DNA of 64,000 nt, taken from positions 7,652 to 71,651 of IMG/VR virus record IMGVR_UViG_2974655058_000001. One strand, 5' to 3'. This stretch comes from a virus (taxonomy: Duplodnaviria; Heunggongvirae; Uroviricota; Caudoviricetes; Demerecviridae). The position numbers were made by a program, and so were the translations under genes. The notes beneath the pieces are model-generated. The model ran no database searches, was not told where the DNA came from, and saw only the letters and a program-made list of their open reading frames with translations. Shown in pieces: positions 932-11,040 of this stretch; position 1 is the stretch's first letter, and every line of letters begins with the position of its first letter.

Positions 932-1126
932 ATGAGCAATAAAATTGTTGTAACCAAAATCAGTACAATGGTTGATGTTTTTTACGTGCCCGATACGCCG
1001 GAAAACCGACAAGCGGTCGAGCGTGGCGAGTATGATAAAGTGATTTATGATCACGATGGCTATTATCAACATTTGGTGGATTCCTACGGGGAAGAGGAAA
1101 AAATCACGCACCGACTACCAGACTAA
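932..1126 (+). CDS. hypothetical protein (64 aa)
   Basis: GGAG RBS; followed by a terminator hairpin. Confidence 0.55.
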   Translation: MSNKIVVTKISTMVDVFYVPDTPENRQAVERGEYDKVIYDHDGYYQHLVDSYGEEEKITHRLPD

Positions 1127-1133
1127 TAATCAC

Positions 1134-1167
1134 GGGGCGCAACTATCAGGGAGTGCCCCCAATTTTC
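1134..1167 (+). terminator. rho-independent terminator closing the plus-strand gene block
   Basis: GGGGC...GCCCC stem followed by AATTTTC. Confidence 0.6.
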
Positions 1168-1188
1168 AAATGAGAATGATTCTCATTT
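1168..1188. repeat. perfect 21-bp palindrome AAATGAGAAT-G-ATTCTCATTT
   Basis: read directly from the sequence. Confidence 0.8.
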
Positions 1189-1382
1189 GACCGCGCCCGC
1201 GATGGTTAGCCTGCTAATGGTTAGGGTGTTACGTGTCGCCTTGTGTGATCGTTAGCTCGCTAACTAATTTCTAAGCCTCCTCCAATTTTACCCTTGTTTT
1301 AGTATCCCCACCAAAATTAAACGCGTTAGAATGCGATTCAGGACGTTTTAGGCCTATATTAGAATTATTCACTGCATAGGAA

Positions 1383-1402
1383 TACTGTATATTTATACAG
1401 TG
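1383..1402. promoter_or_regulatory. LexA (SOS) box-like site TACTGTATATTTATACAGTG
   Basis: CTGT-N8-ACAG with an AT-rich centre, near-perfect match to the E. coli SOS-box consensus. Confidence 0.55.
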
Positions 1403-1414
1403 GAATAACCTGGG

Positions 1415-1432
1415 GATAAGTCTGTGGATAAC
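1415..1432. promoter_or_regulatory. 18-bp direct repeat copy 1 containing a consensus DnaA box TGTGGATAA
   Basis: GATAAGTCTGTGGATAAC; the reverse complement contains TTATCCACA. Confidence 0.55.
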
Positions 1433-1475
1433 GCTTCAAAATGGCTAGGATTTTGTCAAGTCAAATCGTGCTGTT

Positions 1476-1493
1476 GATAAGTCTGTGGATAAC
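1476..1493. promoter_or_regulatory. 18-bp direct repeat copy 2 with a DnaA box TGTGGATAA, plus a 1-mismatch box TGTTGATAA upstream
   Basis: identical 18-mer 61 bp downstream of copy 1. Confidence 0.55.
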
Positions 1494-1499
1494 TTAAAT

Positions 1500-1712
1500 A
1501 ACAGTGTTTCTCACTTCCATTTTTAAATGCGAATCATTATCATTTGCATTTCACTGTCTAACTGATAATCATTCCACTTTTTAAATGAGAATCATTTCAC
1601 TTCTTGAATAGTTCTCATTCCCTTTCTTAAATGCAAATCATTCCGCTTTTTAAATGAGAATAATTATCATTCGCATTCCGCTTTTTAAATGATAATGCTT
1701 CTCATTCAAAGT
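1500..1712. repeat. about five degenerate tandem copies of the AT-rich motif TTTTTAAATGAGAATCATT (Fur-box-like GAGAAT..ATTATC cores)
   Basis: visible periodic repeats of 35-45 bp. Confidence 0.6.
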
Positions 1713-1713
1713 C

Positions 1714-1740
1714 GCAGGGCAATTGCCCTGCGCTTTTGTG
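1714..1740 (+). terminator. hairpin GCAGGGC-AATT-GCCCTGC followed by GCTTTTGTG
   Basis: GC stem followed by a T-run. Confidence 0.5.
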
Positions 1741-1959
1741 CAAATCCGACATTGCTCCACGGGTGTTACGTGCGGGCATGTATGTGCGAATCCGACAATT
1801 TTTGGTAGTGTGCAAATCCGACCCGAAAAATTTTTATAGTGTGCAAATCCGACAATGAATTTTCCCAAAAACTCCAGCAATCACGAACTGCGTTCGAATC
1901 CTGTGGAATTAGCTAGAATATGTGCAAATCCGACATGTGTTGAGATGTGCGAATCCGAC
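1738..1959. repeat. iteron cluster: six copies of GTGC(A/G)AATCCGAC
   Basis: copies at 1738, 1784, 1810, 1841, 1922 and 1947. Confidence 0.8.
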
Positions 1960-2289
1960 AAGATTTTTATGACTTCGATGAGAGGGTGTGTGATTGTATA
2001 GGTTTGAGGAAAAGATGAGAGAGCGAGAGAAATTTTGGTACTAGAAGGGTGTGGGCGCAGGATTGGTGCGGAGCACCTGATTTGCGGGGATTTTGGGGAA
2101 GAGTTGAGATAATTTGGGGAAATTTGAGATAGGTGCAGAAAAAGTAAAATTTTATTAGCAAAACGGGGCAAAATAGCTTGACAAGTGAAAATTCTTGTGG
2201 CTCTAAAAACTCAGGCAATCATGGGCCTTCGGCCCGAAATAATGCTGCTATTTTCAGGAGAGTAAGAGTTCCTAAAAACTTAGGCGTTT

Positions 2290-2337
2290 GTGCAAATCCG
2301 ACCAGTTTTTAAACTCCTGTCAGTGTGCAAATCCGAC
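2290..2337. repeat. two further GTGCAAATCCGAC iterons
   Basis: copies at 2290 and 2325. Confidence 0.8.
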
Positions 2338-2339
2338 AG

Positions 2340-2800
2340 TAATTTCTGGAAATGTGTTTTCAAAAAATGTCTCCTAGAAATAACCGCCCTCCCTATAACC
2401 GCCCTGTATTAACCGCCTATTGCTAGAGTTTCTAGGAATATGAAAACCGCCTGAGTTGACTAGAGAAACAGATTTAAAGTTTAATGTAAACTCTAGAGTT
2501 AGTGCTCAACTATTCCTAGAAACTTAGGAGTCTAGAAGAAAGTGTTGTGCCATCCTAGCAGATGAGCGGCAACAGGTGTATCATCTTGAACACAGATATT
2601 GCCATTAAAAATATTTAAATAATATAAAGAAAAAGAGACCCCCAATTTCATGAGAGTCTCTCCTGGGGGGCGCGTGATTAATTACGTGAGTACTCATGCC
2701 GTCATACCGCTGTTGCTAGGCCGCAAGCTATACGAGACATTCGTGTAATAATCATCGCCCCTAGAGTTAATCAACTAGAGTAGTTGTTAATCTATGAGAT
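2340..2800. repeat. region with four (T)AACCGCC repeats and more than ten CTAGA/CTAGAG motifs
   Basis: AACCGCC at about 2383, 2398, 2412 and 2446; CTAG-containing hexamers recur. Confidence 0.5.
2633..2680. terminator. bidirectional hairpin CCCCCA...TGGGGGG
   Basis: inverted repeat with flanking A/T runs. Confidence 0.4.
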
Positions 2801-2848
2801 TATTATAACATGTTTGGGTATGAGAATGCAAGAACTTTTTGTTAACTT

Positions 2849-3562
2849 TTATTCCTCCTTCTTGGATTTGAGTTTGATACCTAAGGATGCGAAGTAGATA
2901 TAAGTTGCTAAATAGGAAGCAGTGGATCCTGTATCATCGTAATCCATAGTTCCGCGAGCTGCTCTAGTATACTCAGGAGCGTAGTTTAATATCGTGTAAC
3001 TTGGCATTCCTAGCGACTTACATAGTTCTTTAAATGTATCCTCATATTTATGGCACATGAAATGCACAGCATTTTCTAGGGGCGTTAACTCTAGATCTTT
3101 ATGTAGAGCTACAGTCAAACTCGCTAACATCGTGCCAATCCCACGATAAACTTCATCTTTAACTAGAGTTGGTTTCTCTTTTTCTAGTGGAGGAAGGTGG
3201 GCATATTTGCCGTGTTTGAAAGGAATAAGATCTTCACTAGCTAATGCTTCTTTAAATGATGCTTCCTTAAATCTTGGGAGATCTTCATCGATTAGGATAT
3301 GAATAGCATTAGAAGAGAAACCCTTTGCTTCAGGATCTAAAGCTTTCAACGCTTTATTCACCTCTACATATGAGCCTGACCAAACAACTTGTTTTGCATC
3401 ACGATCATATTTGATCTTACCTTTATCCCACCTAGCAGGATAATGATCTCCTAAAAACATTACTGCATATTTTTCTTCATCAGTTAGCTGGGAAAGACTC
3501 TTTTGTGTAGCACCACGTGCTAACTGGATGAGACGTTTTAATTTTTCAGCTTCTTTAATCAT
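2849..3562 (-). CDS. hypothetical protein (237 aa)
   Basis: ORF track; the first minus-strand early gene. Confidence 0.6.
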   Translation of the reverse strand: MIKEAEKLKRLIQLARGATQKSLSQLTDEEKYAVMFLGDHYPARWDKGKIKYDRDAKQVVWSGSYVEVNKALKALDPEAKGFSSNAIHILIDEDLPRFKEASFKEALASEDLIPFKHGKYAHLPPLEKEKPTLVKDEVYRGIGTMLASLTVALHKDLELTPLENAVHFMCHKYEDTFKELCKSLGMPSYTILNYAPEYTRAARGTMDYDDTGSTASYLATYIYFASLGIKLKSKKEE

Positions 3563-3964: not shown

Positions 3965-4519
3965 CTAGACTTCCACTCTTACAGGATTGTTCATAGGAAT
4001 AGTATAAACAGACTTATTAAAAACTCCGGAGTCCACAGGCGCTACGCTTTTCATGTCAGATTCAAAAGCTTCTTGGGTGTGTTTCAACTGTACAGAAGGC
4101 CCATAATCTTCACCAACTCGATATGAGGAATTATTTTCTATAACGCCACCGCATGGAACATTGTGCAAATCCGACGTTATTTTAGGACTGTTCCACATTG
4201 TAATTGGCCCTGACTGCCACGGATCTCGAATAGTCACAGGGGTACTAGGACGGTTAACCTCAGTCTTCACAAGTTTATAACCAGCATCGATTAGTGTATT
4301 AATTATATTATCAGCTGGGATGCGAGCTTTGCCAAAGATCTTACGAGCGTTGTTGAGCCTACCTTCAAAATCTTTACATGCTTTAATATTAGTGTGTGCA
4401 AAGGTTAGCTTCATAGATTTGAACTGTACAGTGGCAGTTAAATCTTTAAAGCTATAATCCCACGTATTTAGTTCATGATCGGGTACTACTTGAATAGATT
4501 GTTGTGCATATAAAGTCAT
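3965..4519 (-). CDS. hypothetical protein (184 aa)
   Basis: ORF track. Confidence 0.55.
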   Translation of the reverse strand: MTLYAQQSIQVVPDHELNTWDYSFKDLTATVQFKSMKLTFAHTNIKACKDFEGRLNNARKIFGKARIPADNIINTLIDAGYKLVKTEVNRPSTPVTIRDPWQSGPITMWNSPKITSDLHNVPCGGVIENNSSYRVGEDYGPSVQLKHTQEAFESDMKSVAPVDSGVFNKSVYTIPMNNPVRVEV

Positions 4520-9306: not shown

Positions 9307-9897
9307 TTAGACATTTATATCACCACGCAATACGGCAGCTACATCTTCCCCTATCTGTAATACTTCACCAGTAGTGCAGTTGACTACTCTATCATAGCTA
9401 GTAAACTTACCTGATACAATATCTTCTAGAGGGATAGGAGTTTTGCTCATTTCAAATGAGACATTGATGTAACGAGGGTCACGTAGAGAAGTAGCATGTG
9501 CGTGCCCGTGAATATTTAACTTGCCTCGAAGTTCGTTGGGGTGCAAAGGACAGTGAGATAACCAAAACTTTTTACCACCACCAGTCTGTTTACCTAGAGC
9601 CTGAATATCATCGTAAACTTCTACTAAATCTTTAATACAGAGTCCTTGACGTTCCGCATCGTGGTTGCCCATAATAAGTTGATTAGGAACATTGTGGATA
9701 ACCGACTTTAGCTTGGCCAAGCCTTCACGACCTACTGCAATGTCTCCTAACAAGATGAGTTTAGTACGTTTGCCAATGTGCTTGGAAAGGGTATCCAGAA
9801 TATACTCATCATGCTCTTTCATGTTCTTAAACCACGGGCGGAAACGTAGTGCTCCGGGATGGTCTAAGTGCAAATCTGACCAAAATTTAACTTTCAT
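9307..9897 (-). CDS. calcineurin-like metallophosphoesterase
   Basis: DLHLDH...GDIAVG...GNHD motifs. Confidence 0.7.
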   Translation of the reverse strand: MKVKFWSDLHLDHPGALRFRPWFKNMKEHDEYILDTLSKHIGKRTKLILLGDIAVGREGLAKLKSVIHNVPNQLIMGNHDAERQGLCIKDLVEVYDDIQALGKQTGGGKKFWLSHCPLHPNELRGKLNIHGHAHATSLRDPRYINVSFEMSKTPIPLEDIVSGKFTSYDRVVNCTTGEVLQIGEDVAAVLRGDINV

Positions 9898-10177: not shown

Positions 10178-11040
10178 TAAAGAATCCTCTGTATGCCACA
10201 GCTATCTTCTCGAAGCGTGGTAAATGTTGTGATTTTCCCAGTTTCATCATTAACTTGCGCAACCGTCAACTGCCCGTTGAAGACACCGCCAGTATCTAGG
10301 TAAACACGATTCTGGTATAAAATAGGGTAAGGTACTCCGGTATGTCCGTGAAACACAAAGTCTACCCCACTAACTGGAGGTACTTCTACCATGTATTTTT
10401 CTTTAAATCCTGCATAACGCTGGAAATACGAGTGTTCCTCACCATTTTTGGACAAATGGAAGCCTATTTCTTGGATTACATCTCGATCCCATAAGTATGG
10501 TTCAACATGGTATCCAGGATGGTCATGTGGGTCTTCCTTAGCTGCTTCTACTTGTGCAATAAGGTTATCCCATACTGGGATTTCTACTTCGTTACCACAT
10601 TCTTTGTACGTAAAAGGTACACCACCATGAACAACACCATATTTCTTGCCACGATGCAGCACAGTCAGAAATACTGGAAGTTTTTCAGCCATGTCTTCGG
10701 CAATATTTTTAATGGTATCTGCATCTAGTTCATTCATAGCCCACATACCACCGTTATACATCCAGTTAGCCCAATCTCCCACAATCATAAACTGGTCATG
10801 ATTTCCACGAACGCTACAGAAACGTGGATTATATAAGAATTTAGCTAGAACTTGTAGGTTCTGCGTGCCTCGGTCAATTAAGTCACCAACACATACTACG
10901 CAATCTTTCTTGCCGTTATATCCAGCTAATTGTAGGGCATCTTCTAGCAAATCATTGCATCCATGAATATCGCCAACAAAGAATAAGTTAACATCATCAG
11001 GTACTACTAGTGTTTTATGCACATTAAATTCTTTTTTCAT
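10177..11040 (-). CDS. Ser/Thr protein phosphatase (PPP family, lambda-PPase-like)
   Basis: GDIHGC, GDLIDRG and GNHD motifs. Confidence 0.8.
   Translation of the reverse strand: MKKEFNVHKTLVVPDDVNLFFVGDIHGCNDLLEDALQLAGYNGKKDCVVCVGDLIDRGTQNLQVLAKFLYNPRFCSVRGNHDQFMIVGDWANWMYNGGMWAMNELDADTIKNIAEDMAEKLPVFLTVLHRGKKYGVVHGGVPFTYKECGNEVEIPVWDNLIAQVEAAKEDPHDHPGYHVEPYLWDRDVIQEIGFHLSKNGEEHSYFQRYAGFKEKYMVEVPPVSGVDFVFHGHTGVPYPILYQNRVYLDTGGVFNGQLTVAQVNDETGKITTFTTLREDSCGIQRIL

Follow-up and report, generated by a model that had tools for sequence, protein, structure and literature searches.

Direct repeat D of T5-like phages: a conserved array of probable protein-binding sites beside the injection stop and the terminal-repeat boundary

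Direct repeat D and other described repeat systems

The packaging site (pac) of phage SPP1 is made up of pacL, pacC, and pacR and is bound by the small terminase G1P, and pac of phage P1 has hexamer repeats on both sides of the cut. In parC of plasmid R1, two iteron clusters flank a core element and are bound by ParR. The closest described system, however, is 'direct repeat D' (DRD) of phage T5. The T5 record AY587007 lists 'direct repeat D copy 1' to 'copy 10' and places 'copy 11' and 'copy 12' inside exo2/D13, and DRD copies are also listed by Davison (bioRxiv 10.1101/866236).

We analyzed a window of 64,000 nucleotides (64 kb; the whole stretch of DNA under study), in which the region described here is 100% identical to Salmonella phage VSe12 (MN022787; a T5-like Tequintavirus). 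Window positions equal MN022787 record positions minus 7651. A previous, sequence-only reading had reported eight noncoding copies of a 13-mer at 1738–2337, together with two copies inside coding sequences. Our search of the window for GTGCAAATCCGAC, allowing ≤1 mismatch, recovered all eight and also the one-mismatch copy at 9868, whereas the coding-sequence copy placed at 4164 was found to start one nucleotide earlier, at 4163. The search returned ten sites, 10/10 on the + strand, as follows.

1738..1750, + strand: DRD copy 1, exact GTGCAAATCCGAC; starts 4 bp past the GCGC nick consensus; homologue of 'direct repeat D copy 1' in AY587007
1784..1796, + strand: DRD copy 2, variant GTGCGAATCCGAC
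1810..1822, + strand: DRD copy 3, exact
1841..1853, + strand: DRD copy 4, exact
1922..1934, + strand: DRD copy 5, exact
1947..1959, + strand: DRD copy 6, the same G variant as copy 2; final copy within the terminal repeat
2290..2302, + strand: DRD copy 7, exact; first copy beyond the terminal repeat, +87 from its boundary
2325..2337, + strand: DRD copy 8, exact; +122 from the terminal-repeat boundary
4163..4175, + strand: exact copy in the CDS at 3965..4519 (− strand), corresponding to T5 'DRD copy 10' in ORF019; the coding strand reads S-D-L-H
9868..9880, + strand: one-mismatch copy GTGCAAATCTGAC in the CDS at 9307..9897 (− strand), with no T5 counterpart

By chance, ≤1-mismatch matches would be expected in the window at a mean of 0.02 (dinucleotide-preserving shuffles), and 0/100 shuffles contained 10. 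At the same threshold, the whole genomes of VSe12 and T5 hold 12 copies each, all on the + strand, with 8 (VSe12) and 9 (T5) of them located in this noncoding region. The remaining copies include, in both genomes, one in the ORF019 homologue and a pair 15 bp apart in D13. Because it has no counterpart in T5, the near-copy at 9868 is probably due to chance or specific to this lineage. The ORF019-homologue copy reads GTGCATATCCGAC in several relatives.

Alignment of the copies defined a repeat unit of ~15 bp, T-GTGCRAATCCGAC-M, whose sequence is non-palindromic. The position before the motif is T in 8/8 noncoding copies, and the position after it is A (6) or C (2). The copy alignment revealed no shared flank beyond T at −1 and A/C at +13, which rules out that the copies form a portion of a longer repeat unit. 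The start-to-start spacing is irregular, and our spacing analysis detected no helical phasing of the copies. As the sequence-only reading had concluded, this is not a CRISPR array; the unit measures 13–15 bp and recurs every 25–343 bp, in contrast to regular 23–50 bp repeats with unique spacers of similar length.

Three further readings of the array were tried and set aside. An Rfam scan of 1000–3000 at E ≤ 1 returned sub-threshold chance matches only, which gives no support to an RNA element. A promoter array was rejected, as sites from a sigma-70 scan were not above those in shuffled sequence, with 0 on the + strand in the array. The 5' half of the motif resembles a LacI/GalR-type half-site, and a host operator was dropped given that the motif is non-palindromic.

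We consider it virtually certain that the repeated 13-mer belongs to the T5 DRD family, which has been annotated since 2005; the array is therefore not new. T5 and VSe12 share the identical 13-mer, the same A/G variant position, and the same copy order, and the start-to-start spacing is 46, 26, 31, 81, 25, 344, and 35 bp in T5 versus 46, 26, 31, 81, 25, 343, and 35 bp in VSe12. Copies 1 to 10 of AY587007 occupy exactly homologous positions, that in ORF019 included. In T5, the array is in 'Repeat Region 3', beside the injection stop signal. In both phages, it follows the 7.9% nick and spans the terminal-repeat boundary, and both carry the extra copy in the ORF019 homologue as well as the D13 pair. 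Thus, sequence and strand, noncoding location by the nick, and T5 order, spacing, and extra copies all agree with DRD. The two phages differ in that VSe12 lacks the ninth copy of T5 (GTGCAAATCCGAT at +259), bears its A/G variants at other copies, and has the additional one-mismatch copy at 9868. A literature search with the 13-mer string, whose scope did not include Davison's 2015 review, identified no relevant paper.

The D13 pair lies beyond the window, at 78999 and 79014 (to 79026) of the VSe12 record and at 78936–78963 of T5 record AY543070. D13 is an sbcC-like gene, in which the pair is read in frame as VQIL-Q-VQIR, ~365 bp right of the 64.8% major nick. The pair is exact in 19 T5-like IMG/VR contigs and in Yersinia phage phiR201, despite the fact that a 501-bp stretch of the latter is only 83% identical to T5. 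In Seafire, a synonymous change breaks one D13 copy, and in Sugarlandvirus, the pair is absent.

Anatomy of the locus

Homology to annotated T5 genomes supplied a context that the sequence-only reading did not have, namely the injection-stop region, the 7.9% nick, and the terminal-repeat boundary. The array is located in a long noncoding gap (1130–2849), on which the end of the rightward pre-early operon and the end of the leftward early operon converge, and every DRD copy is on the strand of the rightward pre-early operon. The homologous T5 annotations are the 'injection stop signal (iss)', the 7.9% 'major DNA single-chain interruption', and the end of the left terminal repeat, and the noncoding DRD copies sit within the T5 'injection stop signal' feature or just right of it. 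Three landmarks are needed to describe the gap.

1713..1733, no strand assigned: GC-rich hairpin, T5 'palindrome J'; ends in CTGCGC and is terminator-like on the + strand
2176..2203, + strand: conserved element GCTTGACAAGTGAAAATTCTTGTGGCTC; homology to T5, BF23, Sw2, and other relatives places the right-hand terminus of the direct terminal repeat after 2203
2223..2235, + strand: invariant GGGCC-TTCG-GGCCC hairpin, just beyond the repeat boundary and within the island 2165–2248

By homology to T5 9748/9749, the 7.9% major interruption corresponds to a nick on the − strand between 1733 and 1734. The GCGC at 1730–1733, which closes the hairpin, is the homologue of the T5 7.9% nick consensus. The distance from CTGCGC to the first DRD copy is 2–7 bp in 8/9 lineages examined, and the position of this first copy is the frontier between first-step and second-step DNA. 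We rejected nickase targeting, or any general link of DRD to nicks; a DRD copy occurs within 400 bp at 2/4 distinct major nick loci (at 4 bp and ~365 bp).

The right repeat end maps to ...GCTTGACAAGTGAAAATTCYTGTGGMTC/TAAAAACTCAGG (..GTGGCTC/, with the slash marking the end) in T5 (two records), BF23, Sw2, and Stitch (+4). Seven further two-repeat records have the right-end sequence in common, two of the seven being off by 1 nt. The BF23 and Sw2 termini were determined with PhageTerm, and the VSe12 terminus was placed by homology alone. Relative to the repeat end, T5 copies 1–6 lie at −466 to −245 and copies 7–9 at +87, +122, and +259. Likewise, the window has six DRD copies inside the terminal repeat and two just past its right end. 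Copies 1–6 recur at the right genome end solely by virtue of being inside the terminal repeat, at whose left boundary we found no DRD copy.

The classic 99.5% nick position is presumably the right-repeat copy of the 7.9% nick, which fits a T5 repeat end at 10219. Where the left repeat ends differs among the T5 records, which give 9749 (AY692264) versus 10219 or 10139 (AY543070, AY587007). We rejected a repeat that ends at the nick (AY692264, 9749) in favor of 10219; in AY543070, AY587007, BF23, and Sw2, the end lies 470 bp further right.

The stretch at 2165–2248 is the best-conserved island of the whole noncoding region and holds GCTTGACAA ~20 bp before the repeat end. It also contains a TTGACA box with a weak TCTAAA, which gives it a promoter-like look, and a simple scan made no call there. 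The TTGACA element is present in My1, Sugarlandvirus, and Vibrio phage PG07 as well, and one more distant lineage (L059; IMGVR_UViG_2974638963) has merely a degenerate GCTTGAAAA at that place.

Several other repeats were observed around the array. The direct repeat CTAAAAACTYAGGC occurs at 2203–2216, starting precisely where the terminal repeat is inferred to end on the right, and again at 2272–2285, 5 bp before DRD copy 7. AACCGCC is present four times on the + strand (2382, 2397, 2411, and 2445; span 2382–2451), ~180–250 bp beyond the terminal-repeat boundary and nowhere else in the 64-kb window. A similar AATAACCGCCCT pair is found in Sugarlandvirus (L014, 5123–5170), and one GCTAACCGCC lies ~35 bp from the left genome end of T5. 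To the left, two pairs of DnaA-type boxes, 3 bp apart within each pair, comprise TGGGGATAA and TGTGGATAA (1411–1431) and TGTTGATAA and TGTGGATAA (1472–1492); these are the IRD'/IRC' DnaA and DnaA* boxes of Davison. Dense palindromic and direct repeats built on AAATGAGAATCATT / ATTCTCATT fill 1140–1710 and correspond to T5 'DRC', 'DRE', and palindromes E–I. This unit is also recognizable in My1, Sugarlandvirus, and Vibrio phage PG07.

Constraint on the motif and its occurrence in distant relatives

With the aim of measuring constraint, we aligned 25 distinct Tequintavirus and Epseptimavirus sequences and scored their identity to the window. DRD columns were 97.4% conserved, versus 84.9% for the rest of 1738–2337, and the sole variable motif position among the 25 sequences was A/G at position 5. 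Copy spacing is equal in VSe12, T5 (with the 343/344-bp interval noted above), and Kenya-K38.

The motif extends well beyond these genera, and its presence in relatives, on which the sequence-only reading had made its case depend, was observed in T5, My1, Sugarlandvirus, and three metagenomic lineages. In My1, a Pectobacterium phage of the Mccorquodalevirinae, copies of this motif form one cluster left (−497 to −364) and one right (+247 to +431) of the annotated repeat end. In Klebsiella Sugarlandvirus, four copies lie left and six right of the homologous boundary element (−344 to −147 and +119 to +300). The three metagenomic lineages, whose A2 proteins are only 53–60% identical to that of T5, keep TGTGCNAATCCGA and the two-cluster layout. 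The motif is also present in Pectobacterium DU_PP_V, where the locus ends within the array.

Vibrio phage PG07 retains the layout with a different repeat, GAGTGCGGATTCTA. More specifically, the order in PG07 is DnaA boxes, palindromic AATGAGAAT repeats, CTGCGC, cluster A, GCTTGACAA, and cluster B. That the motif changed while the layout was kept suggests that the repeat may have co-evolved with its reader. In yet more distant lineages, the repeats are degenerate or different. In L059 (A1 46% identical), at least eight tandem 8-bp GTCTRRAC units (9623–9690 in T5 orientation) stand where enterobacterial phages have the palindromic AATGAGAAT, and CTGCGC is followed by only degenerate DRD-like copies.

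The arrangement of two same-orientation direct-repeat clusters around a conserved element, presumably coated by protein, resembles R1 parC. The likeness is an analogy of layout only; T5-type phages are lytic, have a linear genome, and lack a partition ATPase/adaptor operon.

The motif is invariant where its flanks no longer align and altered in one branch that keeps the layout, which is the pattern that a cognate protein-binding site would give. We regard DRD as very probably a conserved cis-acting protein-binding array, and we lean toward a phage-encoded protein as its reader. The suggestion that the repeats form a binding-site array thus fits the constraint, the distant conservation, and the motif change in PG07, whereas the term 'iteron', in the sense of a replication origin, does not hold.

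Candidate readers and roles of the array

Binding of a phage protein would be the most likely function of DRD, and two phage proteins, A2 and the small terminase, were compared as readers. Second-step transfer requires A2, which has been described as a DNA-binding protein and is a member of PHROG 1725 ('DNA binding protein'). The precomputed family of A2 is PF26822 (Phage_T5_A2); a local Pfam search with A2 gave no match. Its AlphaFold2 model (pLDDT 84) has an N-terminal helical bundle, for which a Foldseek search of the model against the PDB found no significant match, the best being transposase, Myb, and LexA helix-turn-helix domains, all with E > 0.1.

Among lineages with the identical motif, overall invariance is similar for the two proteins, at 39/135 residues (29%) for A2 and 49/160 (31%) for the small terminase. 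The two differ in where the invariant residues fall. In A2, the segments S..VR.KL and Y.K..RK.GG.S..RK.HYVR are invariant in 8/8 motif-sharing lineages; the former is the predicted third helix of the N-terminal bundle, and the latter is a basic segment that follows it. The putative helix-turn-helix recognition helix of the small terminase has 0 invariant residues among six identical-motif lineages. In addition, lineages with different or degenerate repeats (PG07, L059, and L061/L062) carry A2 substitutions that affect the invariant segments or the helix before them. The basic segment is altered in PG07 and L059 but largely intact in L061/L062, where the changes fall in the preceding helix and in YVR. 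Positions 2–4 of the A2 helix vary (PVS, HVK, ASA, GVA, and IVA) with no change of the motif.

Circumstantially, this conservation favors A2 over the small terminase as the DRD reader, and A2 would be the best candidate, given that its putative DNA-binding segments do not vary among the lineages that keep the motif. The correlation has few independent lineages behind it, and every phage protein diverges with phylogenetic distance. Pre-early A-gene products had been named as possible binders in the sequence-only reading; of these, A2 alone receives circumstantial support, from its essential part in second-step transfer and from its invariant putative DNA-binding segments.

We therefore put forward, tentatively and at somewhat less than even odds, that A2 reads DRD and acts through it in second-step transfer. 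The array would be a set of orientation-fixed protein recognition sites of ~15 bp in a T5-type noncoding module, which separates the pre-early from the early operon and brings together the 7.9% nick, the injection stop signal, and the point at which the long terminal repeat ends on the right. First-step transfer would halt just left of copy 1. A2, together with A1, would then bind the DRD sites on the first ~600–740 bp due to enter next, and the bound DNA would be captured or ratcheted, such that second-step transfer resumes. We hold with equal caution the broader wording that a phage protein, with A2 as the foremost candidate, may bind the DRD copies, load onto post-pause DNA, and aid the A1/A2-dependent restart. 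The narrower proposal, that DRD is a specific A2 loading site just distal to the injection stop and itself drives the restart of DNA entry, is less likely still.

Besides the variable helix positions, the non-significant fold matches, and the few independent lineages, three further points count against the A2 reading. The shear point is left of the DRD sites, which at the pause may not have left the tail or envelope and would then be inaccessible to A2 in the cytoplasm. The model gives no role to the additional ORF019 and D13 copies. Finally, in several genera, two clusters flank the terminal-repeat cut site, a layout that packaging explains more naturally.

Indeed, a pac-like array, in which a factor of the small-terminase type would act on both DRD clusters to position the right terminal-repeat cut, is the strongest competing explanation, although we judge it rather unlikely. 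As in SPP1 and P1 pac, short repeats form two groups on either side of the terminase cut site; DRD clusters lie on both sides of the mapped right repeat end in Tequintavirus, Epseptimavirus, My1, and Sugarlandvirus, as a pac or cos layout would have it, and in PG07, they lie on either side of the conserved GCTTGACAA element. The sequence at that end is the same across T5, BF23, Sw2, Stitch (+4), and the seven more two-repeat records. The left end of T5 DNA is injected first, and under a last-in-first-out rule, the right end is packaged first, which would make this locus the initiation site. However, T5-type phages differ from SPP1 and P1 in having exact ends and a ~10-kb repeat with no headful packaging, and the small-terminase helix-turn-helix is not conserved along with the motif even where the latter is identical. 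The cut is 90–470 bp away from the DRD clusters, and the first of them follows the nick consensus, not the cut; cluster A is separated from the boundary by a variable distance (~147, 245, 350, and 700 bp) and from the nick consensus by a fixed 2–7 bp. Moreover, the best-conserved boundary island could alone provide recognition of the cut site, the left repeat boundary has no DRD copies, and isolated copies lie 1.9 kb and 69 kb away.

Alternatively, the repeats could be sites at which a DNA-binding or membrane-associated protein of Enterobacterales holds the DNA within the injection stop, which we find improbable. The T5 injection stop is independent of phage protein synthesis. In keeping with this explanation, most of the array is inside the T5 'injection stop signal' and adjoins the shear point and nick on their right side, and phages of Escherichia, Salmonella, Klebsiella, and Pectobacterium share an identical motif, from which that of the Vibrio phage departs. 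To our knowledge, however, the DRD motif is assignable to no known host protein. The DRD DNA would not yet be in the cytoplasm at the pause, and widely conserved host factors such as DnaA, IHF, and Fis have an unchanged specificity in Vibrio, which leaves the altered motif unexplained. For the nearby DnaA boxes, Davison has proposed that DnaA holds the DNA.

Slightly less probable again is a role in synapsis or end protection, whereby a protein on DRD copies 1–6 would pair the terminal repeats for recombination or circularization or shield the right end from RecBCD. T5 has to protect and recombine its ends, and these copies fall in the last 470 bp of the mature genome, 245–466 bp from the right end, in a single orientation, as would be fitting for a polar barrier. 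In the right repeat, the 7.9% nick recurs 470 bp from the genome end, consistent with the classic 99.5% nick. Nevertheless, the left genome end has no DRD copy, and the copies just past the repeat, in ORF019, and in D13 are unaccounted for.

That the repeats are replication-origin iterons read by a Rep-type initiator is scarcely credible; they share with plasmid and phage origin iterons multiple non-palindromic direct repeats of ~13–15 bp and nearby DnaA boxes (250–330 bp leftward, 1411–1492), but no Rep-like initiator gene is annotated beside them (the neighbors are small hypothetical pre-early ORFs and converging early genes), their spacing is irregular and without helical phasing, some copies are within coding sequence, replication genes are silent while only this DNA is in the cell, and T5 origins have been mapped near the genome center (cited by Davison, bioRxiv 10.1101/866236).

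Collectively, the analysis bears on how T5-like phages halt DNA entry at 8% and restart it, in a region that was sequenced in 1987. The invariance of the motif across genera, the nick-tied first copy, the clusters straddling the boundary, and the conservation favoring A2 narrow the set of candidate readers. If A2 acts as proposed, import would be programmed by sequence and ratcheted by protein, joining the cis and trans parts of T5 two-step injection. Should either A2 or the terminase bind DRD, the array would offer a handle on second-step transfer or on exact-end packaging, respectively, and it would be a site to spare in the engineering of T5-like therapeutic phages.
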